From NCBI GenBank assembly GCA_937915565.1, contig CALDMH010000108.1, forward strand, positions 1-57,501: a stretch of 57,501 bases of DNA, in the 5' to 3' direction. The position numbers and the translations under genes are program-made. Positions within the stretch are counted from its first letter, which is position 1; each line of letters opens with the position of its first letter. The notes under the pieces were generated by a model. The model was not told the origin of the DNA and ran no database searches. It worked only from the letters and a program-made list of their open reading frames with translations. Below are positions 12,051 through 57,263 of this stretch, in pieces. Source of the DNA: an uncultured Clostridia bacterium (lineage in GTDB: Bacteria > Bacillota > Clostridia > Christensenellales > Borkfalkiaceae).

Positions 12051-12063
12051 TATAAGTCGATTA
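12051..12063 (-). repeat. copy of the 13-nt word TAATCGACTTATA
   Basis: The plus strand reads TATAAGTCGATTA. It is intergenic and flanked by CGTTTTT on the plus strand and an A-run/T-run frame on the minus strand. Confidence 0.9.
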
Positions 12064-12248
12064 ACGGGCGTTTTTCGGCTTCATCGGCAACAATCGGACG
12101 GCAAAAAGGCGTATTGAAATTTTCAAAATGGGAATAAAAAACTTGTCGCTTCTATTGCTTTTTATATAAAAATATAGTAAAATATACGTAATATATATAA
12201 ACTGCGGTAGTCTAACCGCGAGCGTTCGGGCGTTTCTCTCGTCGGCAG

Positions 12249-12303
12249 TTCGATAATGATTCGATAAAGATTCGATAAAGAATCGATACGGGTTCGATGA
12301 AGA
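12249..12303. repeat. five perfectly phased 11-bp tandem repeats (TTCGATAAAGA consensus)
   Basis: Units start at 12249, 12260, 12271, 12282 and 12293. The array ends 50 nt upstream of the ATG at 12353. Confidence 0.9.
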
Positions 12304-12352
12304 AAAGTTTACGACAAGCCCCCTCGTAAAAAACGTTTGAAGAAAAGGCATT

Positions 12353-13858
12353 ATGGAAGTGACTTTGTCGGAAATAAAAAATAAAATTGAAAAGTTTGCA
12401 ACGAAACCGTCGTTCGTATTCGTGGTTTGCGCCGTTGCGTTTATATTTCACGCCCTTGCTTTCGACGTTGCGGGTTTGCTTCTTTTCGGCATAGTCGGGG
12501 GGATTTTTCTCGTTGCGTTCGACGATTCTCGCCCCGCTCTTACCGTAATTCTTTTTACGATTTTTATCGTTTCCACGCAAAACAGCACGGGTTTCCCCAC
12601 GAGTAGTCACGAGGGCTGTTATTATTATAGAAAATCCACGTTGATTCCGCTTGCCGTTTGCGGCTGTTTTTTGGTCGGCTGTATGGCGGTGCGGTGCGTT
12701 AAACACAGGAAGAATTTCGCCTCCGCGAAGTTTACGTTGCCGCTCGTTGCGGTTTCCGTGTCGATGCTGCTTTCGGGCGTCGTCGGCGCGGCGGAAAACG
12801 ATTACGGAAAAAGCGTGTTGTTTTCTCTTATCGCGGTCGGCTCTTATCTGGGGCTATACGTCGCTTTGACGGGAATAATCGACGGAGCGGACGGGCTTTT
12901 GGATTATTCGATGACGCTTTTGTCGGGAATCGCGTTGATAATTTCCCTCGAAGTGCTGTACGTTTATTTTCTCAATCTTCTTCCGCCATTCGAGTTTCTT
13001 CCCGAAAATTGGAGAAAATGTATGCGCGCGGGAGAGAATTTCGGGTTTTCGATTACCTATTGGAAAATCTTTATCGTAACCGGTTGCGGGGTGAGCAATC
13101 AGTCCGGCGAAATGATTGCGTTTTTACTTCCCGCCGTGTTTTATAAAATTCTCAAAACCGAGAAATATTTGGGTTATCATATAATCGCGCTGATTGCCTC
13201 GGCTTCAATCGTTTTAACTTTTTCGAGAACGGGCATCGCCGTCGGGGGGACGCTTTTCGTCGTATTAACCGTCGTAACCGCCGTGAAACTTGAAAAAAAG
13301 AAGTTGTTTATCGGCGTTTCTTCGGCCGTTGCCGCAATCGGAATCGCGCTTTTCACCGCGTTGTGTTTAATTCCCGATTCGCCTCTTCTGAGATATATTC
13401 TTCCGAGCAAAGGCCCGGGGCTTAACGGCCGTTACGAACTTTGGAAAACGGCAATCGAATATTTCAAAGAGATGCCGCTTTTCGGCAGGGGGTACGCGTA
13501 TCCTTATCTGGATTCGCGGTTTGTCGAAAGGTTCGGACCGTCGGTAAGTGTATTTCGTTCGTTGTTCCACAATTTCGTGTTTCAGGAAATTGCTTCGGGC
13601 GGAATCGTAGGAGTCGCCGCGTTGGGTTATGCAACCGTAAGCGTTTTTTGGCGGCTGATAAAGGAAAAATACGAAGGAAAGTTTTACTTTTTGTGTTTTA
13701 TAATCGCTTTTGCGGTTGTTTCGTCGTTTGATATTTTGTATTTCATACCCTATTACGTTCTTTTTCTTATGTTCGTAATAGTATTGGCGGAGAAGGGAAT
13801 AGAAAAAACCAAAACGCACCCTTTGGAGGTACGCAAAGATGAGCGAAAAAAAGCTTAG
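12353..13858 (+). CDS. polytopic membrane protein, O-antigen ligase/polymerase (Wzy_C)-like
   Basis: It has about 11-12 predicted TM helices and a central FSRTGIAVGG loop region of the kind seen in the O-antigen ligase family. This is weak motif-level evidence only. Confidence 0.55.
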   Translation: MEVTLSEIKNKIEKFATKPSFVFVVCAVAFIFHALAFDVAGLLLFGIVGGIFLVAFDDSRPALTVILFTIFIVSTQNSTGFPTSSHEGCYYYRKSTLIPLAVCGCFLVGCMAVRCVKHRKNFASAKFTLPLVAVSVSMLLSGVVGAAENDYGKSVLFSLIAVGSYLGLYVALTGIIDGADGLLDYSMTLLSGIALIISLEVLYVYFLNLLPPFEFLPENWRKCMRAGENFGFSITYWKIFIVTGCGVSNQSGEMIAFLLPAVFYKILKTEKYLGYHIIALIASASIVLTFSRTGIAVGGTLFVVLTVVTAVKLEKKKLFIGVSSAVAAIGIALFTALCLIPDSPLLRYILPSKGPGLNGRYELWKTAIEYFKEMPLFGRGYAYPYLDSRFVERFGPSVSVFRSLFHNFVFQEIASGGIVGVAALGYATVSVFWRLIKEKYEGKFYFLCFIIAFAVVSSFDILYFIPYYVLFLMFVIVLAEKGIEKTKTHPLEVRKDERKKA

Positions 13859-15005
13859 AGTGGTTTTCCCGTTCGTGGAAGCCGGCTTCGGGCATATTAT
13901 GGCGGAGAAGTCCATTGCCGACGCATTTGAAAAAAAATACGGGCAATATTTTGAAATCGTGCGTTCCGATTTCTTTAAGGAAACGGGCAGCGAGGCTATG
14001 GCGAAGTTTGAAAAAAGGCTTTGCAACGAGGTTCGTTTATACAATAAATATAACGCGTACGGCTATCTTAACATTGCCTGTATGAATTTTTTCGGTGAAA
14101 AAATATCGAGTAAATTCGTTATGTCGGGGCTTTATAAGAACCTTTATAAGGATTCTATGGAGCATATGCGCGAGCTTAAACCGGATTGCGTGGTTTCAAC
14201 CCATTGGGCAACGAATTATTACGCCGAGCATCTTAATCCGAAGCCTTACACGGTTATGTACGGGCCGGACGCGCATCTCAACGCGATGTTCCGTTACCCG
14301 TGCGACCTCGATATGATTTCGATAAAAGAGGGCTACGACAGAGCTCTTAAAAATTTCCCGCGGAGGTTCAACGAGGATAACTTGAAACTCGTTCCCACGG
14401 CAATCAGAGAAGAGGCGTTTCACGTTGAACGCGATAAATCCGTTTTGCGCAAAAAGCTCGGAATGGACGACCGTTTCACCGTTATCGTGATGGAGGGCGG
14501 CTACGGAATCGGGTTGACCGAAAAGATTTGCAATCTCGTTATAGAAAAGGATTTGCCGATTAACCTCGTTGCCGTATGCGGCAAAAATCCCGAGCTGAAA
14601 ACAAGGCTCGATTTGCTTAAATCCAAGGGGAAAACAGCGTTTTATCCCTTCGAGTTCTGCGAGAATATTCTCGAATACATCTCCGCTTCCGACCTTTATC
14701 TCGGCAAGAGCGGCAGCGGGATTTTAGAGCCGGCGTTTTTCCACGTTCCGATTGTCGTAACGCATTCGGCAAACACGATTGAGAAGCTTATTGCCGAGCA
14801 TTACGTTTCTCACGTCGGCGACGCGATAAGGATTTTCGACGCCGTAAATTGCGTTGATTTTATCGAACGGGCTTATTCCGGAAGTTCGGAGGTTTTCCTT
14901 AAAATGCAGCGTTCCGTCGATAAACTTCAAGATTTCGGCGGCGAGGGAATAGCGGACGAAATATTTAAAAAACTTAGCGTAAAATTTAAACTTACCGCCG
15001 AATAA
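13839..15005 (+). CDS. glycosyltransferase, MGDG-synthase/UgtP-like (GT28-type)
   Basis: The N-terminal motif EAGFGHIMAEKSI matches the GxGH motif of MGDG_synth domains, and a C-terminal GT-B half is present. A GGAGG RBS precedes it. It overlaps the upstream gene by 20 nt. Confidence 0.7.
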   Translation: MSEKKLRVVFPFVEAGFGHIMAEKSIADAFEKKYGQYFEIVRSDFFKETGSEAMAKFEKRLCNEVRLYNKYNAYGYLNIACMNFFGEKISSKFVMSGLYKNLYKDSMEHMRELKPDCVVSTHWATNYYAEHLNPKPYTVMYGPDAHLNAMFRYPCDLDMISIKEGYDRALKNFPRRFNEDNLKLVPTAIREEAFHVERDKSVLRKKLGMDDRFTVIVMEGGYGIGLTEKICNLVIEKDLPINLVAVCGKNPELKTRLDLLKSKGKTAFYPFEFCENILEYISASDLYLGKSGSGILEPAFFHVPIVVTHSANTIEKLIAEHYVSHVGDAIRIFDAVNCVDFIERAYSGSSEVFLKMQRSVDKLQDFGGEGIADEIFKKLSVKFKLTAE

Positions 15006-15015
15006 TCGACTTATA
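15003..15015 (+). repeat. copy of the 13-nt word TAATCGACTTATA
   Basis: Exact match. Its first TAA is the stop codon of the glycosyltransferase gene. It is followed by GACGGCTTTTT and lies 46 nt upstream of the der ATG. Confidence 0.9.
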
Positions 15016-15060
15016 GACGGCTTTTTGCAGGTTGATTGAAAGGCGAATCGAGGTGATAAA

Positions 15061-16392
15061 ATGGCAAACAACAATAAACCGCTCGTCGCGATAGTCGGCA
15101 GGCCGAACGTCGGAAAGTCGACGTTTTTCAATAAGGTTACGGGGCAAAAACTGTCAATCGTAGAGGATACCCCCGGCGTCACGCGCGACAGACTTTATGC
15201 AGACGCGGAATGGTGCGGAAAAACTTTTACGCTCATCGATACGGGCGGAATAGAAATCAAATCGCAGGACGAAATGTGGACGCATATCAAAAAACAGGCG
15301 ACCATAGCCATCGAAACTGCGGACGTGGTTATTTTCTTTTGCGACGCGAAAACGGGGCTCACCGCTTCCGATTACGACGTTGCCGAAATTTTGCGCCGTT
15401 CGGGCAAGCCGATTGTTCTTGCCGTAAACAAACTCGATAATTATAAGGTTGAAGTTCTTTTCGATTTTTACGAACTCGGGCTCGGTCAGCCGATAGGTAT
15501 TTCGGCAGAGCAGTCGAAAGGAATAGGCGACCTTTTGGACGAGGTTTGCGCTCATTTCAAGCCCGTTGAAGAGGAAGAGGACGGCGAAAGGCTTAAAATC
15601 GCCATCGTCGGAAAGCCGAACGCGGGCAAATCGAGGCTCACCAACGCCCTTCTCGGTTACGACAGGACTATCGTTTCCGATATTGCGGGAACGACGAGGG
15701 ACGCTATCGACACGCCTTTGGAAGTTGACGGCAAGAAATATACGTTAATCGATACGGCGGGGGTAAGAAGGAAGCGTTCGGTCACCGAGGACCTCGAATA
15801 TTACAGCGTTTTGCGTTCGTTTGCGGCAATTCGCCGCGCGGACGTGTGCTTAATCGTTATCGACGCTTCGGAAGGACTTACCGAGCAGGACGTTAAAATA
15901 GCCGGCTACGTTCACGAGCAGGGCAAGCCGTCGGTTATCGTTATGAACAAGTGGGACAAGGTCGAAAAGGATACCCACACGATAAACGAATACGAAAACA
16001 AGCTTAAATGCGACCTTGCGTTTATGGATTATTTCAAGTCGGTTTACGTTTCCGCCAAAAGCGGCCAAAGGACGAATAAACTTTTCGGCCTTTGCGAAGA
16101 GGTTTACGCCAACGCGAACAAACGCATCACCACCGGCACGCTTAACGACGTAATTTCGGACGCGGTGCGCGCCAACGAACCGCCCACGAAGAACGGAAGA
16201 AGATTTAAAATTTACTATTGCGTTCAGGACGGAGTTTGCCCGCCGACGTTCATTTTGTTCGTAAATTCTGCCGACCTTATGCACTTCTCGTATAAGAGAT
16301 ATATTGAAAACACGATAAGAAAAACGTTTGGTTTCGAGGGGACGCCAATTCGTATTTTCGTGCACGAAAAACAGGAAGAAAGCCCTCAATAA
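15061..16392 (+). CDS. der: ribosome-associated GTPase Der (EngA)
   Basis: Two G domains (GRPNVGKST ... DTGG; GKPNAGKS ... DTAG ... NKWD) plus a KH-like C-terminus. Confidence 0.95.
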   Translation: MANNNKPLVAIVGRPNVGKSTFFNKVTGQKLSIVEDTPGVTRDRLYADAEWCGKTFTLIDTGGIEIKSQDEMWTHIKKQATIAIETADVVIFFCDAKTGLTASDYDVAEILRRSGKPIVLAVNKLDNYKVEVLFDFYELGLGQPIGISAEQSKGIGDLLDEVCAHFKPVEEEEDGERLKIAIVGKPNAGKSRLTNALLGYDRTIVSDIAGTTRDAIDTPLEVDGKKYTLIDTAGVRRKRSVTEDLEYYSVLRSFAAIRRADVCLIVIDASEGLTEQDVKIAGYVHEQGKPSVIVMNKWDKVEKDTHTINEYENKLKCDLAFMDYFKSVYVSAKSGQRTNKLFGLCEEVYANANKRITTGTLNDVISDAVRANEPPTKNGRRFKIYYCVQDGVCPPTFILFVNSADLMHFSYKRYIENTIRKTFGFEGTPIRIFVHEKQEESPQ

Positions 16393-16400
16393 GTCGATTA
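16389..16400 (-). repeat. 12/13 copy of the word TAATCGACTTATA
   Basis: The plus strand reads ATAAGTCGATTA. Its TAA (16390-16392) is the der stop codon. AGTCG/CGACT can form a 5-bp hairpin followed by TTTTT. Confidence 0.8.
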
Positions 16401-16434
16401 ACGCGACTTTTTGCCGCGAAATAAGGAGTTTGTT

Positions 16435-17823
16435 ATGAGTTATTTGAAGGACGATTTTTTGCTTGAAAACAAAACCGCGGTAAGGCTTTACGAAACCTAC
16501 GCGAAGAATATGCCTATCTTCGATTATCACTGCCACCTGCCCGAGAAGCAAATTCTCGAAAATAAAAAATTCAACGATATTTACGAGGTATGGCTCGGCG
16601 GCGACCATTATAAATGGCGTCTTATGCGCAATTATGGGGTGAGCGAGGAGCTTATCACGGGAAGCGCGAGCAATCACGATAAGTTCGTTGCGTATTGCAA
16701 AACGCTCGGCACGGCTTTCGGAAATCCGCTTTATCACTGGTCGCAACTCGAACTGAAAGAATTTTTTAACTGCGAACTTGAAATTAACGAAGAAAACGCC
16801 GAAACAATCTGGAATTGGTGCAACGATTTTATTTCGCTTAACGACGTAACGCCCCAAAAACTTATCGAAAACTCCGGCGTTTGCTGTGTGTTTACGACGA
16901 ACGAGGTTTTCGACGACCTCACGACTTTTGAAAAAATTGCCGAAAAAGGGTATAAATTTAAGGTTTATCCCGCGTTCCGCGCCGATAAAATTATGAACGT
17001 CGAGGCGGAGAAATATAACGATTTCGTAAAGCTTTTGGAGGAAAAAACGGAGAAAATCGACGATATGGCGTCGCTTGAACGCGCCCTCGAAGCGAGGTTG
17101 GACGCGTTTATAAAAGTCGGTTCGAGAGCTTGCGATATTGCGCTCGAAAAGGTTTTTCCCGTTGCAAAACGAGAGGACGCGGAAAAGGCGTTCAAAAAGC
17201 GCAGGAGCGGCGAAACGCTTGACGAAGCGGAAGTTGAAATTTTCAAAGGCTACCTCACTTATTTCCTTATGAAACTTTATGCAAAGCGCGGAATGGCAAC
17301 CGAAATTCATATCGGGGCGATGCGTAACAACAACGCCGAAATGCTTGCAAAGCTCGGTCTGGATACCGGTTACGACAGTATTTCGGAGGCCGACAGCACG
17401 AAGAATTTATCGAGGTTGTTTGATAGGTTAAACAGCGAAAAGTCCCTGCCGAAGTCGATTATCTTCAATTTGAACCCCAAGATGAACAACGAGCTTATAA
17501 CGCTTGCAAGCTGTTTCCAGTCCGACGAGGCGCGCGGAAAAATCCAGTACGGACCTGCCTGGTGGTTTTTGGATAACAAGGTGGGAATGTATCGTCACCT
17601 CGACGACCTCACTGCAACGGGGCATATAGGCGCATTTATTGGAATGCTTACGGACAGCCGTTCGTTCCTTTCTTATCCTCGTCATCATTATTTCCGCCGC
17701 ATACTTTGCAATTATCTCGGCACGCTTATGGAAAAGGGCGAAATGACGGCGGACGAGGAACTCGTCGGCGAAGTGATTAAGGACGTGTGCTACCGCAACG
17801 CCGCCGCATATTTCAAAATTTGA
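16435..17823 (+). CDS. uxaC: glucuronate isomerase
   Basis: N-terminus MSYLKDDFLL.N..A..LY and the motif PIFDYHCHL. The length is ~462 aa from the ATG at 16435, which follows AAGGAG. Confidence 0.9.
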   Translation: MSYLKDDFLLENKTAVRLYETYAKNMPIFDYHCHLPEKQILENKKFNDIYEVWLGGDHYKWRLMRNYGVSEELITGSASNHDKFVAYCKTLGTAFGNPLYHWSQLELKEFFNCELEINEENAETIWNWCNDFISLNDVTPQKLIENSGVCCVFTTNEVFDDLTTFEKIAEKGYKFKVYPAFRADKIMNVEAEKYNDFVKLLEEKTEKIDDMASLERALEARLDAFIKVGSRACDIALEKVFPVAKREDAEKAFKKRRSGETLDEAEVEIFKGYLTYFLMKLYAKRGMATEIHIGAMRNNNAEMLAKLGLDTGYDSISEADSTKNLSRLFDRLNSEKSLPKSIIFNLNPKMNNELITLASCFQSDEARGKIQYGPAWWFLDNKVGMYRHLDDLTATGHIGAFIGMLTDSRSFLSYPRHHYFRRILCNYLGTLMEKGEMTADEELVGEVIKDVCYRNAAAYFKI

Positions 17824-17885
17824 TTTAAAGCCGCGGAAAAGAGAGTTAAGCGGCGGATTACGTGCATAATTATTGTTAAAAACGC

Positions 17886-17914
17886 TTGACAATATTTTAC
17901 TCGGTTGTTATAAT
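17886..17914 (+). promoter_or_regulatory. sigma-70-type promoter with extended -10, upstream of rpsU
   Basis: TTGACA (17886-17891), a 17-nt spacer, then TGtTATAAT (-10 at 17909-17914). Confidence 0.7.
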
Positions 17915-17960
17915 ATATACGCTTTTAACGTTGAGCCACGGGCAAAGGAGGGTTGAGGAT

Positions 17961-18140: not shown

Positions 18141-18174
18141 TCTTCATTAAAACTTAAAACTGAAAACGTTTTTT

Positions 18175-18207: not shown

Positions 18208-18242
18208 GCCCGAAACATTTTTAACAGGGAGGAATAAAATAT

Positions 18243-18650
18243 ATGGTTACTGCGAAAAGTATCAAATCGGCGGCAAAAGAGGCAAAACAACGTTTGAAAT
18301 CGAGATTTTGGGAAGATTATCGCAAAGAGGTGGAAAGCGGAGTTAAAAAAGCCGAGGCGGAAGGATTAACTGCTTCGGGAGTTGAAAACTATTTCAGGAA
18401 AATGGTGGTGAGAACGGTGAACAAACCCGCCGAGGACGACGAGCGGTTTTATAACGAAGTTAAAACTATGCTCGACGAAGAAGGCTCGAAGCCATCCGAC
18501 GCACTCGACAGGCTTATGGATAAAAAGGTTTTTTATTCGCTCGATTACGTTCAGCGCGAACGCTACCTGTTCGTTTTATCCGAGAAATACCTTTCGTGTC
18601 TTAATCGTTACGACGAGGAAAGAGGGATTGAAAAGCGGCTGGGAAAGTAA
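18243..18650 (+). CDS. hypothetical protein (135 aa, highly charged, helical)
   Basis: A good RBS (GGGAGG) lies 8 nt upstream. The gene has its own terminator-like hairpin downstream. No family motif was recognised. Confidence 0.6.
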   Translation: MVTAKSIKSAAKEAKQRLKSRFWEDYRKEVESGVKKAEAEGLTASGVENYFRKMVVRTVNKPAEDDERFYNEVKTMLDEEGSKPSDALDRLMDKKVFYSLDYVQRERYLFVLSEKYLSCLNRYDEERGIEKRLGK

Positions 18651-18680
18651 CGGAAAAGTTGTAAGATAAAAACGTAAAAA

Positions 18681-18712
18681 CTGCCCGATAATCGACTTAT
18701 ACGGGCAGTTTT
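18681..18712 (+). terminator. hairpin whose 14-nt loop is the TAATCGACTTATA word, followed by TTTT
   Basis: Perfect 7-bp stem CTGCCCG/CGGGCAG. The loop is ATAATCGACTTATA (word at 18689-18701). An A5 run lies upstream and a T4 run downstream. It sits between convergent genes. Confidence 0.7.
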
Positions 18713-18764
18713 ATAATGAGGTTTGTTTTCGAAACGAGCTTCGGCCGATGGTCGGTACGTATAT

Positions 18765-18800: not shown

Positions 18801-18817
18801 ACCACTGCAAAATGAAA

Positions 18818-21325
18818 TTATTCGGAACGAAGAGCGATAACGGGGTCTTTTTTGCTGGCGAGCCTCGAAGGGATAAGACCGGCAATCAACGTAAGGCACA
18901 TCGAAATCGCAATGAGGATAAGCGCGCCTTTCCAGGGAAGAGCGGCGACGTTTGCGATACCCGCGAGCGAGTGAATCAAAATGCTTATCGGAATATCCAA
19001 AAGCGCGGTTATTCCGATGCCCATAACTCCCGCGACGAATCCGATAATTAGCGTTTCGGCGTTAAACACGCGCGATACGTCGCGTTTGGATGCGCCCAAA
19101 GCCCTTAAAACGCCTATCTCCTTGATACGTTCGAGAACGGAAATATAGGTGATGATTCCTATCATTATCGAAGAAACGATAAGTGAAACGGAAACGAAAC
19201 CTATCAAAACGTAAGAAACGGCGTTCACTATGTCGGTTACCGAGGAGAGGAGAATACCGACGTAATCGGTGTATCTGATTTGATTATCCTCGCCGACTTC
19301 CTCGTTAAATCTTTCGATAAGAGATTCCACGTAGTCCTTGTTTTCAAAAGTGGAAGCGTAAATACTTATCGTTGCGGGCTCGTTTTTGTCGGCAAAGCCC
19401 ACTTGTTCGAGAACCGTGTCGATATGGGAAGAAATGAACGGCGAGCCGTCGAGAACGCTTTTTTCGTCGTCGGCGCGTTGAGCTTTAACGACGTCCGCCG
19501 TTTCCATATCGTCCATCAAAGCTTCGGTAAGACCGTAACCGTAAACGAGGTTGCCTTGAATGGAGGTCGCCGAAACGCCCTCTTTCGGACGAATTATGCC
19601 TGCTATTCTCACTTTTCTGCCGTGATTTAAGGCGATTTGTTCAAGCTCGTCGGCGTCCTCGGCTTGCTTATAATACGGGCTTTCGGACGTCTTTCTATAA
19701 GTGAAAGGCGTGGTGAGAAGCGTGTATTCGAGGTTGATGAAATCTTTGGTCTGGTAAGATTGCGTTTCGGGTTCTTCGTTCATCGAAGACGCGTCGAACT
19801 GCTTTCTCAAACCCAAAACCGTCAGAACGTAATCGGGAATCTGGTTATACGAGTTGACTACGAGCATTATTTCGTTCTCGCTTGAAAAATCAATCCATTT
19901 TCCGTCGATAAGTTCATATTGACTTTTGATAAGCTTTTCGCTGTTAATCAATTCGTTCCACACGGGGAAATAGAGTTTTGCGACGTCCGCCGTGGCGAAA
20001 GGATTGGACGATTGGTTTCTGAACGCCTCCACCATTGATTCGATGGGGCTTTTGAGCCTTGTGAATTTATCGCCCGTGGTCACGTCTTCGCCGTAAACTA
20101 TGAAATTTAAGTTGTAAGTATATTTAATCGCGGTGATTTTGCTTCTGTCGTAATCCTCGGTTTCAAGGAAAATCTTGAAGTTTTTAACGTCGTTATCCTT
20201 GCTGCCCTTTTGAAAATCCTTGTAGAGGTCGGTAATCGAATTGTTTACCGTAATATCTTTCGTGTTCGGGTATCTCACTCCGCTTCCGGATTGAGCGACG
20301 TCGTTCATACCTTGCATAACCGTCGAGTAATCCGCAAATTTTTTGGTAATCGTAACGGGGTAGTTGGAAAGAGCGTCGCGCTGAACGGAATCGATGTAGT
20401 TCTGGAATCCGTTTGAAAGCGACAAGACGAGCGCGATGCCGATTATGCCTATGCTTCCCGCGAAGGAAACGAGAATCGTGCGCGCCTTTTTCGTGAGCAT
20501 ATTTTTGAAACTTAACGAAAGCGCGGTGAAGAAACTCATCGAAGTTTTCGGCGGTTTATTGCCTTTCGTCTTTTTTTTGCGTTTATCCGCGGTTTTTTCG
20601 TCCGAATTAACGTTTAAGGCTTTATATTCCGCATTCATTTCCTCGTCCGAAACGGGTTGACTGTCCGAAATGAGTTCGCCGTCCAAAAGCCTGATTATTC
20701 TCGAAGAATATTTTTCGGCAAGCTCGGGATTGTGCGTCACCATAACGATAAGGCGTTCGTGAGAGATTTCCTTTAAAAGCTCCATTATCTGCACGCTCGT
20801 TTTGGAATCGAGCGCGCCCGTCGGCTCGTCGGCAAGAATTATTTCGGGGTCGTTTACCAAAGCTCTCGCAATCGCAACTCTTTGCATCTGTCCGCCGGAA
20901 AGTTGGTTGGGTTTAACGTTAAGTTTGTTCCCGAGCCCCACTTTTTCCAGAGCTTTTTTAGCTTTTTCGCGGCGTTCGGCCGCACTCACGCCAGCAAGGG
21001 TGAGGGCGAGTTCCACGTTTTCGGCAACCGTCTGATGCGGGATAAGGTTATAACTTTGGAAGACGAAGCCTATCGAGTGGTTACGGTAAGAATCCCAATC
21101 TTTATCGGTGTAAAGCTTGGTGCTTTTACCGTCGATGGCAAGGTCGCCGGAAGTGTATTTGTCAAGTCCGCCGATAATATTCAAAAGAGTGGTTTTTCCG
21201 CAGCCGGAAGGGCCGAGCACGGATACGAATTCGCTTTTCCTGAATCTTAAACTGATTCCTTTCAAAGCCCTGACCGTTTCGTCCTGCGTGTAGTATTCCT
21301 TTACGATGTTACTGAGTTCCAACAT
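18818..21325 (-). CDS. fused ABC transporter: N-terminal ATPase + MacB/FtsX-type permease with large extracytoplasmic domain
   Basis: Walker [10 protein letters not shown], signature LSGGQMQR, and Walker B ILADEPT. TM1 is followed by a ~400-aa loop and a C-terminal FtsX 3-TM bundle ending [18 protein letters not shown] is present. Confidence 0.88.
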
Positions 21326-21509: not shown

Positions 21510-22184
21510 ATGTTTTCCGTACTTGTCGTCGAGGACGATATACCAACGAACAAATTGATGACGATAGTCCTGAAAAACGGCGGATACAAACCGATACCCG
21601 CCTTTTCTTCGGCGGAGGCTTTGCGGCTTTTCGATTCGGAAAAGCCCGACCTCGTTCTTGCCGACGTTATGCTTCCGGACGTGAGCGGCTTCCGTCTTAC
21701 GGAAGCGATAAGGCGGGCGGACGCGGAAGTGCCGGTTATCATCGTAACGGCAAAGCAGTCGCCGTCGGACAAACATTACGGGTTTATGGTCGGCGCGGAC
21801 GACTATATGACGAAGCCCGTGGACGAGGAAGAATTGCTGCTGCGCATCAAAGCGTTGCTTCGCAGATGTAAGTCTCCGTCAGAGCAAAAGTTGCAGTTTA
21901 ACGACTTATCGCTGGACTTTTCAAAGATGATGGCAACCGTGAACGGCGTTCCCGTGGAGCTCACTCAAAAGGAATTTTTGCTTCTTTTCAAGCTTCTTTC
22001 CTCCGAGGGGAAAATCTTCACGAGGAACGAACTTATGGAGGCCGTTTGGGGCAGTTCCGAAAAGGACGACCACACTTTGAACGTGCATATAAACAGGGTA
22101 AGAGAAAAGCTTTCGGGCGTGAAGTCGATTGAGATAAAGTCGATAAGAGGGCTTGGATATAAGGCGGTAAAAACCGATGCGTAA
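21510..22184 (+). CDS. OmpR/PhoB-family response regulator
   Basis: The receiver domain shows VLVVEDD, a phospho-acceptor D in LVLADVMLPD, and VIIVTAK. A winged-helix C-terminus (LT.KEF.LL ... IRGLGYK) is present. The ATG at 21510 follows AAAGGAGG. Confidence 0.92.
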   Translation: MFSVLVVEDDIPTNKLMTIVLKNGGYKPIPAFSSAEALRLFDSEKPDLVLADVMLPDVSGFRLTEAIRRADAEVPVIIVTAKQSPSDKHYGFMVGADDYMTKPVDEEELLLRIKALLRRCKSPSEQKLQFNDLSLDFSKMMATVNGVPVELTQKEFLLLFKLLSSEGKIFTRNELMEAVWGSSEKDDHTLNVHINRVREKLSGVKSIEIKSIRGLGYKAVKTDA

Positions 22185-23258: not shown

Positions 23259-23300
23259 TGCGCCGCGAGGTTTTTTCAAAAAAACCTCGCGGCGCATTTT
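23259..23300. terminator. bidirectional rho-independent terminator between the kinase and amidase genes
   Basis: Stem TGCGCCGCGAGGTTTTT/AAAAACCTCGCGGCGCA followed by TTTT. The A/T arms serve both strands. Confidence 0.85.
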
Positions 23301-24576: not shown

Positions 24577-25138
24577 AAAGTTGAAAAGGGGGCTTGCGCC
24601 GATGGGCGGTTACGAGCGTCAGCAGGCTCTCGATTATTACGACGAAATGATTGACGACAGAATCGAAAGCGGCAAAACCGAGGAGGAGGCCGTGGACGAA
24701 CTCGGTTCGCCGGAATCCGTCGTCGAAAAAACGTTGAGGGAAGCGGGAATCGACGCGGATAAAAGCGGCTCGTTTTTCAAAGACGACAAGGGCAACGTCA
24801 AAACGGGCTGGGTGGTTGTCTTAATCGTCGGCGCGCCGTTATGGTTTGGGCTTGCGTGCGGATTGTTCGGGCTTGCGCTGGGGCTTTTTTGCGGAGCGCT
24901 CGGGCTTATTGCCGGGATAGTCGGCGCGTGCGTCGGTATGGTTGCGGGCGGCGCGGCTTCGGTCGGCTTCGGAATTTACACGTTGTTTTTTGATTTCGGC
25001 TCGGGGCTTATGTGCATCGGCGGCGGACTTACGGTGTTTGCGCTCGGCGTGCTTTGCTCCGTCGGAGTTTGGTTGCTTTTAAAACGCGGATTCGGTTATA
25101 TCCGCTCGTTGACAAGAAAAAAGGAGAGTAAACGATGA
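24554..25138 (+). CDS. DUF1700-type membrane protein (PadR-associated)
   Basis: The N-terminus KKEFLKKLKRGL...YYDEMIDDRIESGKTEEEAV..LGSPE is followed by a Gly-rich TM region. It overlaps padR. Confidence 0.8.
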   Translation: MTKKEFLKKLKRGLAPMGGYERQQALDYYDEMIDDRIESGKTEEEAVDELGSPESVVEKTLREAGIDADKSGSFFKDDKGNVKTGWVVVLIVGAPLWFGLACGLFGLALGLFCGALGLIAGIVGACVGMVAGGAASVGFGIYTLFFDFGSGLMCIGGGLTVFALGVLCSVGVWLLLKRGFGYIRSLTRKKESKR

Positions 25139-26043
25139 AAAAATTTATTATAGTATTATGTATAATTTTAGCCGCGGGAATCACGCTCGGCATCACGGGC
25201 GCGATAATTTATGCGGCTAACGGGAGTAACGATATGAGTAAATACACGGAAACTGCAAACAAAACCGCGCTCGACGGCGTGAATTCAATCAAGATTAAAT
25301 GCACCGTAGAGAGCATCGAAGTGACGCCCGTAGACGGCGACGAAATCACTTTTTCTTATTACGAAGGCGATAAACTTCACCACAATCTGACGGTTGAAAA
25401 CGGAAAACTCGTTTTTGAAACCGAGAACAAAATGTGGGCGTTCTGGTTCTGGTGGGGCTTTAACAAGGAATCCTTAACGATAAAAGTCGGCGTTCCGCGC
25501 GCTTTTGCGGGCGACCTCGAACTCGACGCTTCCACGGGAGATATAAAAGTTTCGGATATAGCGGGCGTAAAGGAATTCGACGCGGAAATTTCCACGGGAG
25601 TTATAAACGTGGACGGCGTGAAAGCCGAAAGCATTTCGCTTAAATCGAGCACCGGCGCGATAAAGCTTAAAAATTCGGAAGCGAGCGGCGACGTAAAAGT
25701 TAAGGCAAGCACGGGCAAAGTCGTCGTGGACGAGGTTAAAGCAGGCGCAGAACTCGGCGTTGAGGTAAGCACGGGCAAAGTGGAATGTAATGCGGACGCC
25801 AAGGACGTAAAACTGAAAAGCTCCACGGGCGAAATCCGCTTCAACCTTAAAAACGCGTCCGTGATTTTCGTAAAATGCACGACGGGCTCGGTGAACGGTA
25901 AAATCAAAGGGATAAAAGAAGAATACGGCATAGATTGTTCAACCACCACGGGCGACAAAAACCTTGCAAACCAAACCGGCACGACCGACAAAAAGCTTAC
26001 CGTAAAAACGACGACGGGCTCGGTCAGCGTTTATTTCGAGTGA
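25135..26043 (+). CDS. DUF4097-like putative adhesin / beta-helix repeat protein
   Basis: It has a signal-anchor and a repeated STG.I.V/STGKV motif every ~20 aa. It is the third gene of the PadR-DUF1700-DUF4097 arrangement. Confidence 0.7.
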   Translation: MKKFIIVLCIILAAGITLGITGAIIYAANGSNDMSKYTETANKTALDGVNSIKIKCTVESIEVTPVDGDEITFSYYEGDKLHHNLTVENGKLVFETENKMWAFWFWWGFNKESLTIKVGVPRAFAGDLELDASTGDIKVSDIAGVKEFDAEISTGVINVDGVKAESISLKSSTGAIKLKNSEASGDVKVKASTGKVVVDEVKAGAELGVEVSTGKVECNADAKDVKLKSSTGEIRFNLKNASVIFVKCTTGSVNGKIKGIKEEYGIDCSTTTGDKNLANQTGTTDKKLTVKTTTGSVSVYFE

Positions 26044-26070
26044 TTGCCAATAGACGCTAAAAAGTTGAGT

Positions 26071-26083
26071 TAATCGACTTATA
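26071..26083 (+). repeat. copy of the 13-nt word TAATCGACTTATA
   Basis: Exact match framed as AAAAAGTTGAG-T-word-G-CCGCAC-TTTTT. It lies 32 nt upstream of the ATG at 26115. Confidence 0.9.
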
Positions 26084-26114
26084 GCCGCACTTTTTATAAA
26101 AGAAAGGAGAAAAA

Positions 26115-27152
26115 ATGAGCAAAAACGAGTTCAATTACGTTCAGGGAAAAGCGCATATCGCGCTCAAAGAGGACGGGTATTACGTCTGGGATTCCTCGGT
26201 TATCAAAGCGGAAGGGAAATATCATATGTTCGCTTCGCGCTGGAAGGAGGATATAGGCTTCGGCTGGAACTGGGTTTTCAACAGCGAAATATGCCATTTC
26301 GTCGCCGACGCGCCGGACGGCAGGTTCGAGTTTAAAAACGTCGTGTTGCCGCGAAGAGGCAGGCAGTATTTCGACGGTATGAACACGCACAACACCTGCA
26401 TAAAGTTCTGGAACGGCAAATATTATCTTTACTATATGGGCACGACCTACGGCGGCGACGTTCCCGGCGATTGTCGGCTTATAGACAACAATTACGCTTT
26501 GGAAACCTGGAACAGGAAAAGAATCGGCGTGGCAGTTGCGGACGATATAAACGGCGAGTTCGTGAGAAAAGACGAGCCGCTTTTAGAGCCGCGCGACTGT
26601 TCGCATTGGGATTGCACGATAACCACGAACCCTTCCGTGGTAATTCTTCCGAGCGGCAAAACGTATATGATTTACAAATCGAGAAGAGCGTTCGGCAAGC
26701 CATTGCAACTCGGCATTGCCGTGGCCGACGCGCCCGACGGAAAGTTCGAGCGGCTCACCGAAAACCCCATTCTCGAATTCGCGAACGACGATAAGCATAT
26801 GGAAGACCCGTTTTTGTGGTACGACGCAAAGCGCAAGAAGTTTTGTATGCTTGCAAAGGACGATTCCAAAAACGGCGATAGCGGCATAACGGGCGAATGG
26901 GGCGCGGGATTTTACGCCGAAAGCGACGATTGCGTCAACTTCGAGTTGCCCGAAAATCCGAAGGTTTATTCGAGAAATCTCGAATGGGCGGACGGAAGAA
27001 AAACCACGCAGTGCAATCTGGAACGCCCGTCGATTTTGTTCGACGAAAACGGCGAACCGATTTATCTCTATTGCGCTTCCGGCGACGGAGAATCGCCGTA
27101 TTCCTTCAAAGGGGCGACTTACGTCGTCGGCATAGAACTTAAAAAGAAATAA
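26115..27152 (+). CDS. five-bladed beta-propeller glycoside hydrolase, GH43-like, cytoplasmic
   Basis: Blade-type motifs WDSSVIKAEGKYHMF, GKYYLYYMG, RIGVAVADD..G.F, LGIAVADAPDG and MEDPFLWYD. No signal peptide. The family assignment is tentative. Confidence 0.6.
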   Translation: MSKNEFNYVQGKAHIALKEDGYYVWDSSVIKAEGKYHMFASRWKEDIGFGWNWVFNSEICHFVADAPDGRFEFKNVVLPRRGRQYFDGMNTHNTCIKFWNGKYYLYYMGTTYGGDVPGDCRLIDNNYALETWNRKRIGVAVADDINGEFVRKDEPLLEPRDCSHWDCTITTNPSVVILPSGKTYMIYKSRRAFGKPLQLGIAVADAPDGKFERLTENPILEFANDDKHMEDPFLWYDAKRKKFCMLAKDDSKNGDSGITGEWGAGFYAESDDCVNFELPENPKVYSRNLEWADGRKTTQCNLERPSILFDENGEPIYLYCASGDGESPYSFKGATYVVGIELKKK

Positions 27153-36800: not shown

Positions 36801-37385
36801 GCCGCCGCAGACGTTACGGCGAAGATAGCGGCAATAAATATCGCCGAAGTAAACGACGAAAATTACGCCGCGGCAAAGGCTACCGTAGTTTCCGCAAGAC
36901 AGGATTACGAAGACCTTTCCGACGCCGGTAAAGCGATGGTTACCAACCTCGACGCGCTCAAAGCCGCCGAAGCGAAGGTTAAAGCTTACGAGGACGTTAA
37001 ATCTGCCGCCGACGAAGTTATCGCAAAAATCGCGGCTCTTGAAAAAATAACCGTCACCGACGATAATTACGAAACCGTGAAAGCCGACGTCGTCGCAGCC
37101 AAAGCCGCTTACGAAGCTCTTTCGGAAGCCTCCAAGGCAAGGGTTGATAACTATGAAATTATCGCCTCGGCGGAAAGCAAAATCAATGCTTACGAGGACG
37201 CAAAAGCGGAGGAATCCAATAAACCCACCTCCGAAAAGCCGAACGAATCGCAGAACGACTCCACCGATAGCGGAAGCTCGGGCGGCGGACTTGGTTGCGG
37301 CTCGGCCGTAGGCGCAAGCGGATTAGGCCTTATGGTTCTTCTTGCCGCAGGCGCGGTTGCGATTTTCAAAAAGAAAGAGAATTAA
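33861..37385 (+). CDS. large secreted cell-surface protein (1174 aa) with repeated beta-sandwich-type modules, helical repeats and Cys-containing C-terminal anchor
   Basis: It has a signal peptide ending AYAEE. Four ~200-220-aa modules share a W..W(I/F)(I/T)LK(D/Q) core. A PEPEEPEPQPEEPEELEPE linker is present. Three ~60-aa Ala/Lys/Glu helical repeats carry (E/D)NY..(A/V)KA. The tail reads GGGLGCGSAVGASGLGLMVLLAAGAVAIFKKKEN. Confidence 0.85.
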   Translation: MRKKKLWIVLLCIVAATALCFASLTAYAEEPAEGAETEETLNLALDQTKWNTTTFEAKADGLYAKGTNVSATTKDKIPASATVTTAISGTLAEKDTTWCYAWIVLKQSDPNATVTCNGKNATLSSGNGLIFSWGASHGSESVNEVIDGQSVKMTDTKFVSGFDSWSQYAVNSEITITMTDGPFGTTLDLVFKGGVTNETKTYSYTCENDFSGEGYYGFGYLGGGTVDETHNYVITKATVEEIAVDNDLSHSAANWTTSTGSIVGGENGITATANGNALLKHKLPANSTVTAKITGTAAGTWGNVWFTLKDTRETPDASSSNATAGSYILYRLGGDFNVGQGTIAEVKDGTLLPLNHSIEGASNADSWYVRKQVTEFTFTTEDTETGVKVTVHVKGENCEYEEVIESDNEVLKGEWTLGIGCFVDLAGGNLVIDNVTVKNNDKSEPEKPEPEEPEPQPEEPEELEPEIANLAVSADNFNGGLGNHSGVFGENGITISQTTFSASLVKDVKAGSKIVLDLEGKGETTGWGEAWIILKDVSYPQVIDARQDEKSSFRSLTRGMNYVAFRFGNSYLAGINEVKDGQFTETIITEWAQSDFTAFFKQRVRVVITTEDSDSGVKFNIEFQNLTTGHTLTKEYVSDNVKLKGDYAVNVGTYVGLNAGESIVIRKFGVTETVEKTDRSGANMATDLKYMRNGFNYKAFRYYDGNGLALEQVTKAGFTMYHKVASAQSVTLKYNNTLTSASYGNTYLLLKANDRYVEVPNPNDREINEYNAKSEADPAAAKGDNWILVMFGADGLQRYVCIDGIIEKTNLGDGADNLDVWYWYKQAPSIMLTATDIAETEEDDAHIEVNFTLMGSSGKLTAKSFNVYEEALMGAKYLQVSYFLSTGGNMESDFDFVCLEKLSYMGLDDVVIPEIDVEALNASIASYKAITAENYEAAKATYEAAAAKRAEMNVLQVDKFNAAALAELNKKLEAYLTDKEAAADVTAKIAAINIAEVNDENYAAAKATVVSARQDYEDLSDAGKAMVTNLDALKAAEAKVKAYEDVKSAADEVIAKIAALEKITVTDDNYETVKADVVAAKAAYEALSEASKARVDNYEIIASAESKINAYEDAKAEESNKPTSEKPNESQNDSTDSGSSGGGLGCGSAVGASGLGLMVLLAAGAVAIFKKKEN

Positions 37386-51862: not shown

Positions 51863-51878
51863 ATCGTTAAAATTTGTA

Positions 51879-51906
51879 TTGTTAAAATAAAAAATAAATT
51901 TATAAT
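51879..51906 (+). promoter_or_regulatory. candidate internal promoter upstream of the oxidoreductase cassette
   Basis: TTGTTA, a 16-nt spacer, then TATAAT (51901-51906). Confidence 0.4.
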
Positions 51907-51924
51907 AGTAACGTGGAGAAAAAT

Positions 51925-52995: not shown

Positions 52996-53000
52996 ACGTT

Positions 53001-54913: not shown

Positions 54914-54939
54914 ATATTGCCTTAAATTCAAATAAACGA

Positions 54940-54975
54940 ACGGGCGGCGAGCCGATGGCTCGCCGCCCGTATTTT
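54940..54975. terminator. strong bidirectional rho-independent terminator between convergent operons
   Basis: 14-bp stem ACGGGCGGCGAGCC/GGCTCGCCGCCCGT with a 3-nt loop, then ATTTTAATTTTT. Confidence 0.88.
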
Positions 54976-55052
54976 AATTTTTAAATGCGGTGATAAGAAA
55001 CGAAATTCCTTTTATAAATTTTTTGCCTTTATAAATAATAAATATTTCGCTT

Positions 55053-55955
55053 TTATAAATATTTCGCCACTTTTTGCCTTGTCGGGAGCGAATCCGTCGC
55101 GCCGCGTCCGAGCGTGTTCAGCGAGCCGCATACGTTCGCGAAAAGCAAGATTTTTTCAAGCTTTTCGGCAGAAAGGTCGACGGTTTTTTCTTTGTACAGT
55201 CCGAACAGCGCGCCGCCTAAAAAAGCGTCGCCCGCGCCCGTCGCGTCAACGGGTTTTATTTTTATCGTTCTCACCCTTTCCGTCCTGCCGTTATGCCGCC
55301 ATTCGCAACCCTTTGCGCCGCGCGTTATCAAAACGAGCGAATTTTTAAGCTTACGCTCGATATAGTCCTCTCCGAAAAGTTCCGTTTCGTCCTCGGAAAA
55401 CTTGATTATATCGCAAAGCGGAAGAAAGGAAAGATAAGCTTTCATCGCATTATTTTCGTCGCCGAAAACGTCGCTGCGGTGATTCACGTCAAAACTGACG
55501 AGTTTCCCCGCCTCTTTGGCGCGTTTGGCAAGTTTCATCGCATAATCGAGCCCCGATTTTTCGGAGAGCATAAGCGAACCGAAGTGAACGATATTCGCCT
55601 TGCTTAAAAGTTCGTCCGAAATTTGCGGCAAGTCGGAATCGGCGGTGTTTTTCCTGTAAAAGCCGAACGACCTTTCGCCGTCGTCCGATATTTCCACAAA
55701 CGCAAGCGTAGTGTTTTTATTTTTCCTGACGGAGATTAAAAGTTCGTCGAATTTTTGTTTTTCGGCGTAATTTTTTAAAAAGTCGCCTATGGAATCGTTC
55801 CCGACCGCCCCCGCGAATGCAACGCTCCCGCCGAGTTTTTTAACGGCGCAGGCAACGTTGAACGGAGCTCCGCCCGCTTTTCTTTCGTAAAAATAGCCGT
55901 TTCTTTTCTTCTCGCCGAGCATATCGGCGAGTATTTCTCCAACGCACAAAATCAT
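55053..55955 (-). CDS. PfkB-family carbohydrate kinase (fructokinase-like)
   Basis: N-terminus ILCVGEILADM, the GG motif (AGGAPFNVA) and the C-terminal motif DATGAGDAF. Confidence 0.8.
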   Translation of the reverse strand: MILCVGEILADMLGEKKRNGYFYERKAGGAPFNVACAVKKLGGSVAFAGAVGNDSIGDFLKNYAEKQKFDELLISVRKNKNTTLAFVEISDDGERSFGFYRKNTADSDLPQISDELLSKANIVHFGSLMLSEKSGLDYAMKLAKRAKEAGKLVSFDVNHRSDVFGDENNAMKAYLSFLPLCDIIKFSEDETELFGEDYIERKLKNSLVLITRGAKGCEWRHNGRTERVRTIKIKPVDATGAGDAFLGGALFGLYKEKTVDLSAEKLEKILLFANVCGSLNTLGRGATDSLPTRQKVAKYL

Positions 55956-55974
55956 ATTTTTGCCCTCTTTGAAG

Positions 55975-57207
55975 TCATAAATTCTGCAATTTTAAAGCCA
56001 TACAGGCGTAAAGCGTGTTAAAACTGAAAAAGTCGTTATTCAGGAATTTTTCTCCCGTATCGGGGTGATAAGATTCGCTTAAAGACCTCGTTTTTTCTAA
56101 ATCCTTGATAAGATAAGCTTCGGTTTGCTCTTTAATTCTGCGCGCATCCTCAATTCTTCCGTTAGAGAAAAACGCCTCGAAAACGAAATAATTGGCAATC
56201 GTCCACACCGCGCCGAGCCAGTTAGAGGGGTTGCCGGACGGCTCTAAATTGTAGGCTCTTTCGTATTTTGAAACCGTTCTCACGCCGTAAGGGCAGTTAA
56301 GTCCGCTTTCCGAAAAAGCGTCGAGCGCGGCAGCGGCTCTTTTTTCGTCCGCAACGCCGAAGCAAAGCGGCATATAGCAGGAAAACATCTTGATTTTCAG
56401 CGGCGTGGTTTTCCAGAACGCGGGCAAACCGTGGTTGAAATATTCGGTTATATGAGTTTTTACGTTCACGTCCTGCGAATAATAAAAACAGTCTTTTTCG
56501 TCCCACATAAGCTCGTTTATCGCATTTTTTAACGCGTTATGCCTGTTTTTCCAAAGTTTTTCGTCGCGGTTGAAGATTTTCGCAAGTTCCGTCATCGCTT
56601 CAAGTTCGGCAACCATAAGCGAATTCAAAAATACGTCCGCCGAGGAGTAAGGCAACCTTCCGAAAACGGTGGGGTTGTTGTCCGTGCCGAGAAACACGTC
56701 GTCCGCATAAACGAACAAACCGCTTTGCTCGTTAAATTGTTCTTTATAGTAATATTCAAGATATTTTTCGAGTTTTTCTATGGGGAAAACGTTCAAATAA
56801 TCCTTAAAGCCGCACTCGTCGTAAAGTTCGAAGGCTTTGAGGGCGTGTCTTGAAAGGACGGGTTTATGAGCGTTGTTTGCACGAGGGCGGGTTGCATAGT
56901 CGTCGTTTTCAACGTCGGAACGAATCATACACGGAATAAATCCGTCGTCCTCCTGCATATCCAGAAAGTTGAGAACGTTTCCCATTGCCGCCTTTGCAAG
57001 GCTTTTCTTTTTTTCGGCGTTCGGTTTAAGTTTTAAAACCGCACTCATTCCTTCAACGGTGAAAAAACTGTCCCAATCCCAAAGAGTGTTTTTATACGGA
57101 ATCCCCGGTTGTAAAAACGGGTAACGCAGTTTTCCGTTTTCCTTTGCGGTGAGTTTAAAGGATTGCTCGTCTAAAACGTCGATTATTCTTTGTTCGGTTT
57201 CGTTCAT
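55975..57207 (-). CDS. (alpha/alpha)6-barrel glycoside hydrolase, GH63/trehalase (MGH1)-like, cytoplasmic
   Basis: The LWDWDSFF motif is near the N-terminus, the sequence is helical-repeat in character, and it is 410 aa long. An AAAGGAG RBS is present. The family call is tentative. Confidence 0.5.
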   Translation of the reverse strand: MNETEQRIIDVLDEQSFKLTAKENGKLRYPFLQPGIPYKNTLWDWDSFFTVEGMSAVLKLKPNAEKKKSLAKAAMGNVLNFLDMQEDDGFIPCMIRSDVENDDYATRPRANNAHKPVLSRHALKAFELYDECGFKDYLNVFPIEKLEKYLEYYYKEQFNEQSGLFVYADDVFLGTDNNPTVFGRLPYSSADVFLNSLMVAELEAMTELAKIFNRDEKLWKNRHNALKNAINELMWDEKDCFYYSQDVNVKTHITEYFNHGLPAFWKTTPLKIKMFSCYMPLCFGVADEKRAAAALDAFSESGLNCPYGVRTVSKYERAYNLEPSGNPSNWLGAVWTIANYFVFEAFFSNGRIEDARRIKEQTEAYLIKDLEKTRSLSESYHPDTGEKFLNNDFFSFNTLYACMALKLQNL

Positions 57208-57250
57208 AAAACTCCTTTGCGTTTGCCGCGTCTTTTTTTAAAAAGCCGCC

Positions 57251-57263
57251 TATAAGTCGATTA
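57251..57263 (-). repeat. copy of the 13-nt word TAATCGACTTATA
   Basis: The plus strand reads TATAAGTCGATTA. On the minus strand the frame is AAAAATATGGCGA-word-G-GCGGC-TTTTT, 44 nt upstream of the ATG at 57207. Confidence 0.9.

Follow-up and report, generated by a model that had tools for sequence, protein, structure and literature searches.

A framed 13-base word in gut Christensenellales: a putative double-stranded DNA signal and candidate tag for self DNA

The closest described counterparts of the element reported here are the DNA uptake sequences (DUS; GCCGTCTGAA and its dialects) of Neisseria and the uptake signal sequences (USS; AAGTGCGGT with AT-rich flanks) of the Pasteurellaceae. 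In N. meningitidis, 375 DUS lie in 268 tail-to-tail regions, 760 in 1413 tail-to-head regions and 104 in 270 head-to-head regions, and 635 lie in 2065 genes (Kingsford 2007, PMC1852404). A second source places 34.5% of these DUS in open reading frames (ORFs), at poorly conserved positions, and describes genes without close homologues as devoid of DUS (PMC2817400). The present work concerns a 13-base word, TAATCGACTTATA, which recurs in a 57,501-nucleotide stretch of an uncultured Clostridia bacterium of the Christensenellales (GCA_937915565.1, contig CALDMH010000108.1, positions 1 to 57,501), hereafter referred to as the window.

After the exclusions described below, what remains is that the word forms the core of a composite double-stranded DNA signal of ~35 bp, putatively recognised by a protein and not acting as RNA. 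The pattern of the copies shows that they arise at many unrelated sites by point substitution, between genes as well as within them. The pairing, placement and in-gene evidence excludes an RNA element, a terminator, a promoter, an insertion of the type made by repetitive extragenic palindromic sequences (REP) or miniature inverted-repeat transposable elements (MITE), and a replication-oriented word. The best reading of the analysis, which we hold tentatively, is that of a DNA-level uptake or transfer tag marking self DNA and maintained by biased DNA transfer.

The word occurs five times exactly in the 57.5-kb window and twice more with 12 of its 13 bases, whereas ~0.002 exact copies are expected by chance; none of 100 dinucleotide-preserving shuffles of the window reached the observed count. 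Its 11-base core, AATCGACTTAT, recurs more often in the window than any other 11-mer, with seven copies, and all seven were recovered at E<=2e-4 by a sequence model, R1, which was built from 145 copies of the word and used to score the window. The preliminary description of this DNA had already listed the five exact copies and computed the expectation, both correctly, and its 12/13 copy near 16389 is present at 16388-16400 on the reverse strand. It had also held that the word is never found inside a gene body. This is refuted by a 12/13 copy that it overlooked, at 6511-6523 on the reverse strand, which lies within the coding sequence of rseP. The degenerate copy that it proposed at 7453-7470 has three mismatches and is missed by R1 even at E<=10.

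The A-run and the T-run previously noticed around the word are present, and their spacing is fixed, the consensus of the framed element being AAA-N6-G-W-TAATCGACTTATA-G-N5-Y-TTTT. Counted from the first base of the word, the left side of the frame comprises AAA at -11..-9, a weak GCC at -5..-3, a G at -2 and an A or T at -1, and the right side comprises a G at +13, five variable G+C-rich bases, a C or T at +19 and TTTT at +20..+23. The G that follows the word is found in 93% of the copies; this is partly imposed by the search pattern, yet the G is also seen in copies that were not seeds. The aligned copies hold ~33-37 bits of information. The element displays a loose two-fold symmetry, with ATAA and TTAT around TCGAC and the A-run opposite the T-run, and the two runs are separated by approximately three helical turns. 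The constant part spans only 13-16 bp, the flanks vary among copies within one genome, and one-mismatch variants recur, such as ..CGGC.., ..CAAC.. and ..ACCT...

With regard to its distribution, one genome per species was scanned in 8-kb tiles with the pattern TAATCGACTTATAG, and at least 119 tiles matched. At least 89 of them belong to at least 42 assemblies labelled Christensenellaceae, Christensenella sp., Clostridia or Clostridiales; among the matches listed, a single assembly contributes as many as seven tiles, against an expectation of ~0.02 matches per genome. The word is thus present in at least 42 species-level Christensenellales assemblies and is not species-specific, as had been supposed. 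The motif-positive assemblies come from the guts of humans, goat, roe deer, reindeer and buffalo. The remaining ~30 of the matches listed are single, unframed and found in unrelated taxa, as chance predicts. Framed copies are also found in CAZPFZ01 (L002, L024 and L074), labelled 'uncultured Acidiphilium sp.', and in CAVJMJ01 (L007 and L079), labelled 'Parasutterella excrementihominis'. L079 aligns with Clostridia tiles at 69-76% identity, and the copy-bearing contigs of both assemblies are probably mislabelled or mis-binned Christensenellales.

The Der protein of the window is 72-95% identical to proteins of metagenome-assembled genomes (MAGs) classed as Clostridia and "Borkfalkiaceae", which NCBI files under Christensenellaceae; the relatives reached through Der clusters are MAGs only, with no cultured relative found among them. 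In der neighbourhoods sampled without selection for the motif, it is present in six lineages, whose Der is 74-94% identical to that of the window. Four other lineages sampled in this way, two with 57% G+C and two with 36%, gave no R1 match at E<=0.05. The density is ~1 exact copy per 10-25 kb in unselected DNA and, variants included, ~1 per 6 kb in tiles chosen for carrying a copy. Viral contigs (IMG/VR) yielded only 107 single copies, at or below chance, of which at most 4-5 have any frame, all in AT-rich DNA; a phage origin was dropped on these grounds. A search of the whole window against Rfam returned no family at the gathering threshold, and around four of the copies there were chance-level matches only, at E<=1. 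The motif had been thought undescribed, and literature searches agree: the word, its reverse complement and its sub-strings occur only as incidental primer matches, and no papers on Christensenellaceae repeats were found. A different dispersed repeat, GGCAACGTGACGTTGCATCC(A/G)(A/T)GTATTA, was seen in one of the sequences (L230:3444-3740, 12875 and 13297), with six copies in 21 kb, four of them clustered.

The placement of the copies was classified in 715 kb of clade DNA, with genes called by a codon-usage model that reproduced a sensible map of the window. Taking exact and one-mismatch copies together, convergent spacers hold 0.46 copies per region, co-directional spacers 0.21 and divergent spacers 0.09, and genes hold 0.09 copies per gene; the difference between convergent and divergent spacers is significant (p=3e-5). 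Within co-directional spacers, 32 copies run along the gene direction and 33 against it. The copies lie a median of 13-26 nt past a stop codon and often supply the stop codon itself. Relative to GC skew they split 44:59 (p=0.17), which indicates no replication-strand bias, and a replication-oriented word of the Chi or KOPS (FtsK-orienting polar sequence) type was dropped for lack of such skew.

A substantial share of the copies lies at least 30 nt within genes, namely 33 of 116 exact copies (~28%) and 21 of 49 one-mismatch copies. The word falls within Pfam domains of AddA, TsaD, SpoIIE, a P-type ATPase, NFACT/RqcH, an amidohydrolase and HI0933-like proteins, and its three stop-free frames read (D/V)NRLI(D)GF, K-x-x-YKSII and AISRLS. 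These in-gene copies keep the T-run in 79% of cases and the A-run in 67%, as against 21% and 16% in chance matches from other taxa and viruses. The TsaD copy aligns without gaps to solved TsaD structures and therefore arose by substitution, not by insertion; mobile insertion into genes was dropped as a candidate on the strength of this alignment. In the gene set, NRLI peptides are spelled AAT-CGA-CTT-ATA in 15 of 16 cases, where 0.04 are expected, and CGA accounts for 4.8% of the Arg codons. Motif codons likewise spell 14 of 15 YKSI and 5 of 9 ISRL peptides. As the tiles were chosen for carrying the word, these codon counts show the causal direction, from DNA word to peptide, and not an unbiased rate.

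Pairing between the flanks was assessed by position-pair complementarity, by folding of native versus chimeric flanks, by covariation of all position pairs, by the longest helix in any register and by the number of paired cells. The left flank of a copy pairs no better with its own right flank than with those of other copies, and no position pair covaries, either as complement or as identity. The stem of the preliminary description, applied to the 145 copies, gives 45.0% paired cells versus 44.2+-0.9% in shuffles, and slid registers are equally good. The longest helix matches that of chimeric controls except in ~3% of the copies, which have stems of 7-8 bp, and the framed element folds with a median energy of only about -2 to -3 kcal/mol. 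The lack of flank covariation upholds the suggestion that conservation resides in the core rather than in a stem. The perfect 7-bp stem (CTGCCCG/CGGGCAG) that had been proposed at 18681-18687/18702-18708 is present (-18.5 kcal/mol), so that the word does form the loop of a stem in the 18689 copy; it does not in the other window copies, and 18689 is a rare hairpin variant. Perfect stems are also found at a few copies elsewhere (L004, L036 and L076).

Several copies adjoin a separate canonical terminator, such as the hairpin at ~12008-12040 directly before the 12051 copy. The window also holds, between convergent genes at 23259-23296, a perfect 17-bp palindrome (TGCGCCGCGAGGTTTTTT/CAAAAAAACCTCGCGGCGCA) bordered by a T-run at either end, which is a textbook bidirectional terminator and shows the form of a real terminator in the host genome. 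Long perfect hairpins formed by the word and a second, inverted copy, for instance GGGCTATAAGTCG-TTTAAT-CGACTTATAGCCC and TAATCGACCTATAGGTCGATTA, are found at L014:2427-2473, L070:701-748 and L115:5660-5702; they are rare counterparts of the Neisseria DUS pairs that serve as terminators. In a lineage with 37% G+C, two identical palindromes framed by an A-run and a T-run, GCGGTAATCGCGCTATAAGGCGATTACCGC, flank a cluster of small helix-turn-helix genes (L232:275-314 and 1330-1369) and constitute a hairpin-forming relative of the word (TATAAGGCGATTA, 12/13).

Comparison between relatives shows both retention and turnover of the copies. Relatives with 94% and 90% identity in Der retain the copies on either side of this gene; at these orthologous sites the core and the T-run stay constant, whereas the spacers and the distance from the stop codon vary. 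The 15003 copy is retained at the same place in both relatives, and the 16388 copy is retained downstream of der in L234 and L227 at differing distances from the stop codon. Orthologous spacers also keep their copy in L069 and L087 and in L029 and L040. The 26071 copy is absent from the orthologous spacer of L025, where coding DNA is 80% identical, and the copy at L107:527 is absent from L117, where the DNA is 86% identical. Other orthologous spacers carry a copy in another orientation or position (window 18689 versus L111, L011 versus L063, L069 versus L079). No direct repeats, target-site duplications or inverted repeats were found flanking the copies. Beside one motif copy, L029:2750-2960 contains three copies of a ~33-nt unit, AACGGGACGTCGGGGTCGCCGTCCCCTACGGCT, ~80 nt apart, which are absent from the orthologous spacer of L040.

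These observations bear on several explanations. The preliminary description had offered a terminator-associated element as one of its options, and the A-run/T-run frame, the position just past stop codons, the preference for convergent spacers and the few perfect stems are what would be expected of an intrinsic terminator acting in both directions, or of some other RNA hairpin whose apical loop is conserved. However, the flanks neither covary nor pair in excess, folding is weak, Rfam offers no family, several copies have a canonical terminator of their own beside them, both orientations are equally common in co-directional spacers despite the T-run, and fully framed copies lie within AddA, TsaD, SpoIIE and other genes. 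The terminator function previously suggested is contradicted by the absent covariation, by an orientation independent of transcription and by framed copies within essential genes, so that this reading is largely refuted and very improbable. We consider it equally improbable that the word is a REP/MITE-like repeat that is mobile or spreads by transposase-dependent insertion. Its copy number and 3' intergenic bias are REP-like, and palindromic versions exist in some lineages (L014:2450, L070:713, L232:275 and 1330), but a constant part of only 13-16 bp, flanks that differ within a genome, the absence of flanking repeats and the gap-free substitutions within genes, where ~28% of the copies lie, are not compatible with insertion. 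Even less credible is a role as promoter, whether for a single-subunit RNA polymerase of the phage type or for an alternative sigma factor. By eye only, TAAT-CGACT-TATAG resembles the T7 promoter TAATACGACTCACTATAG and gCCGATAA the sigma-28 -10 box, and a G follows the word almost throughout, although the search pattern required that G. Nevertheless, the copies are oriented at random relative to genes, are scarcest in the divergent spacers, which bear promoters, and also lie inside genes, the blocks are not spaced as in T7, no -35 partner lies at sigma-28 distance, the host genome has ordinary TTGACA-17-TATAAT promoters and viral contigs show no enrichment, by which this reading is essentially refuted. 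All the by-eye likenesses considered were dropped for wrong spacing, key bases or genomic placement, namely those to the T7 and yeast mitochondrial promoters, the sigma-28 -10 box, the IHF consensus, the Fur box, cre, the Spo0A box and the P22 pac site.

Two further explanations take the word to be read as DNA. The copies could form an array of sites for a clade-specific DNA-binding protein with a chromosomal role, such as nucleoid organisation, segregation or occlusion of the Noc, SlmA or MatP type, or topological insulation where transcription units end. Such an array would be kept by selection and not by transfer bias, and its protein would be a bending dimer reading the 13-16 bp core together with the flanking A/T tracts. 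The orientation-independent behaviour at the DNA level, the partial dyad symmetry with the A-run and the T-run three helical turns apart, the conservation of core and T-run at orthologous sites while spacers drift, and the enrichment where convergent transcription ends all agree with this, and a few hundred copies per genome is within the range of REP-bound or nucleoid-protein site sets. In contrast, the signal carries about twice the information required for that many sites, the sites turn over rapidly among relatives, as at L107:527, the motif is wholly absent from close lineages, which would be odd for an essential chromosome function, and site-by-site selection would need to bear the cost of rare codons in essential genes. 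We regard this explanation as possible, albeit doubtful. A pac-like signal, at which a gene-transfer agent or a generalised transducing phage would initiate packaging, would drive the word through transduction and leave a distribution signature identical to that of a tag for DNA uptake. The spacing of ~10-25 kb could be of headful-size order, and small terminase subunits typically read sites that combine an asymmetric core with bent A-tract flanks. However, the IMG/VR matches are single-copy and no more frequent than chance allows, and no phage or gene-transfer agent genes were seen beside the copies, which makes this explanation improbable.

The tentatively preferred reading, that of a tag for self DNA, would operate as follows. 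Tag-bearing fragments would be preferentially transferred between relatives, the likeliest route being sequence-biased uptake by competence machinery. Such a bias would lead the word to build up at sites where it is nearly harmless, as Neisseria DUS and Pasteurellaceae USS do: its density would be highest in convergent spacers and directly past stop codons, lowest in the divergent spacers that bear promoters, and low in those coding regions that tolerate it. A small number of copies, either flanked by complementary sequences, as at 18689, or accompanied by an inverted partner, may have been co-opted as bidirectional terminators. A few hundred sites could be specified with ~14 bits; the signal carries about twice as much, and from this excess (33-37 vs ~14 bits) we infer that drive is favoured over selection at each site. 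The earlier proposal of a protein-binding or REP/uptake-sequence-like element fits in its protein-binding and uptake-like options; its REP-like option does not, the word being neither palindromic nor exclusively extragenic. Going further, the word might be the first sequence-specific DNA uptake (or transfer) signal outside the Proteobacteria, a Gram-positive 'USS' of gut Christensenellales read by a component of the competence pseudopilus or DNA receptor and biasing exchange towards close relatives in human and animal guts; we consider this more specific proposal possible at best.

Several points weigh against a tag for DNA uptake or transfer. No Gram-positive bacterium is known to take up DNA sequence-specifically. 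The density of the word is 10-20 times below that of DUS and USS, and inverted pairs are rare, though common for DUS. A symmetric A-tract/T-tract frame with a 13-bp core would suit a bending, purely chromosomal DNA-binding protein equally well. Absolute densities are rough, since most of the counting was done in 8-kb tiles selected because they contain the word, and all the genomes are uncultured MAGs. If the word nevertheless serves in uptake or transfer, sequence-biased DNA exchange would extend beyond two proteobacterial families and would become open to study in heritable, health-associated gut Firmicutes, and the word would offer a practical handle for transforming organisms that have so far been genetically intractable. 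If instead the copies are an array of binding sites for a chromosomal protein, they would define a new nucleoid or segregation system in Clostridia. Either way, the word is a clean taxonomic signature for binning, and it cautions that elements framed by an A-run and a T-run past genes need not be terminators.

With regard to the individual copies of the window, the framed element at 12039..12075 (core 12051-12063, reverse strand, exact; R1 31.1 bits, E=1e-8) sits between an AraC/GyrI-like regulator gene (10949-11815) and a Wzy_C gene (12353-13858). Two tandem repeats were seen in the same spacer. The first, at 11848-11926 downstream of the regulator gene, comprises 2.3 copies of a 35-nt unit, TAAATAACGAAGCGTTTTAAACCGCGAATTATCGC, with 86% matches; the second, at 12249-12303 and ~50 nt upstream of the Wzy_C (O-antigen ligase-like) gene, comprises five 11-nt units, TTCGATAAAGA, and this period of one helical turn makes the array look like direct-repeat sites for a response regulator. 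The next element (14998..15027, core 15003-15015, forward strand, exact; 27.6 bits) precedes der, and its TAA doubles as the stop codon of ORF 13839-15005. The element on the other side of der (16377..16413, core 16388-16400, reverse strand, 12/13 with T as last base; 23.3 bits) overlaps the der stop codon (16390-16392), which lies within the reverse-complement copy, and the uxaC start is 10 nt beyond the end of the copy. Both of these stop-codon overlaps had been anticipated. The element at 18677..18713 (core 18689-18701, forward strand, exact; 26.8 bits) is flanked by the convergent genes 18243-18650 (forward) and 18818-21325 (reverse). The highest scores are those of the elements at 26058..26095 (core 26071-26083, forward strand, exact; 34.4 bits), between a DUF4097 gene (25135-26043) and a GH43 gene (26115-27152), and at 57239..57276 (core 57251-57263, reverse strand, exact; 34.8 bits), upstream of an MGH1-like glycoside hydrolase gene (55975-57207, reverse). 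For the 15003, 26071 and 57251 copies, the reported proximity to the next start codon holds, with measured distances of 45 nt (to der), 31 nt and 43 nt, respectively.

The copy within rseP (6500..6528, core 6511-6523, reverse strand, 12/13 with C as last base; 17.7 bits, E=2e-4) has neither A-run nor T-run and reads D-K-S-I-N antisense to this Peptidase_M50 gene. Two further sites may be decayed copies. One, AAAA-gttgcagt-TTAACGACTTATC-gctgg-ACTTTT (21885..21922, forward strand; 16.7 bits, E=4e-4), has three core mismatches and an intact frame within the gene of an OmpR-type response regulator, and it may instead coincide with a conserved peptide of that family. The other, AAA-ttgaaga-TAATCGACTT-cggcaggg-ACTTTT (17452..17471, reverse strand; 13.3 bits, E=0.005), lies on the antisense strand of uxaC, retains the frame spacing and differs in the last three core bases. 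All copies but one are found in the core-gene half of the window (1-27 kb), and the accessory, glycan-utilisation half has none until 57251. The motif-free part, 27000-57200, has ~10 intergenic gaps, two of them convergent; it comprises rhamnosidase, GH32, GDSL, GDPD and ABC-transporter genes and also encodes six large proteins without Pfam match, for example at 33861-37385 (1174 aa).

Compared with known systems, the word is closest to DUS, which are also short, hugely over-represented, present in both orientations, common to related species and accompanied by one-base variants. The two share the ranking convergent > co-directional > divergent, and in both about one third of the copies lie in genes at tolerant positions (34.5% vs 28%) and some lie in terminators. 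Over-representation, orientation symmetry, spacer ranking and coding copies formed in situ that distort codon and peptide usage are common to the word and to DUS and USS, and its patchy presence among relatives and scarcity in accessory DNA match the DUS signature. In contrast, DUS and USS occur at ~1 per kb, roughly 1000 or more per genome, which the word does not approach, and the word differs from DUS in its longer core (13 bp), its symmetric A-run/T-run frame, its mostly single copies and its Gram-positive host.

The USS of Pasteurellaceae resemble the word in their architecture, a core with AT tracts at fixed spacing in an element of ~30 bp, and in that related lineages carry different types or none. 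USS are likewise scarce in accessory DNA (PMC2817400), and their coding copies also accumulate by substitution and shift peptide and codon usage, with 65% of USS in ORFs as against ~28% for the word. However, USS flanks are one-sided, whereas the word has its A-run and T-run on opposite sides, and USS are denser and not found in a Gram-positive Clostridia host. The enterobacterial REP and bacterial interspersed mosaic elements share a number of a few hundred copies, in either orientation and concentrated past genes, but REP are imperfect palindromes conserved over their full length, strictly extragenic and tied to REP-associated tyrosine transposases (RAYT), unlike the word with its free flanks, lack of a stem and copies inside genes. 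Chi, KOPS and SpoIIIE recognition sequences (SRS) are also over-represented and read as DNA, in and between genes, but they are words of 5-8 bp strongly co-oriented with replication, whereas the word shows no strand bias. The cyanobacterial highly iterated palindrome HIP1 (GCGATCGC) is another clade-wide, hyper-abundant word of coding and non-coding DNA; it is an 8-bp perfect palindrome at ~1 per kb, whereas the present word is a much sparser, asymmetric framed core of 13 bp that strongly prefers gene ends. The word belongs to an already known kind, that of over-represented genomic words such as DUS, USS, Chi and HIP1, and is new as an instance by its host among Gram-positive gut Clostridia, its asymmetric 13-bp core in a symmetric A/T frame, its density and its near-absence of pairing.

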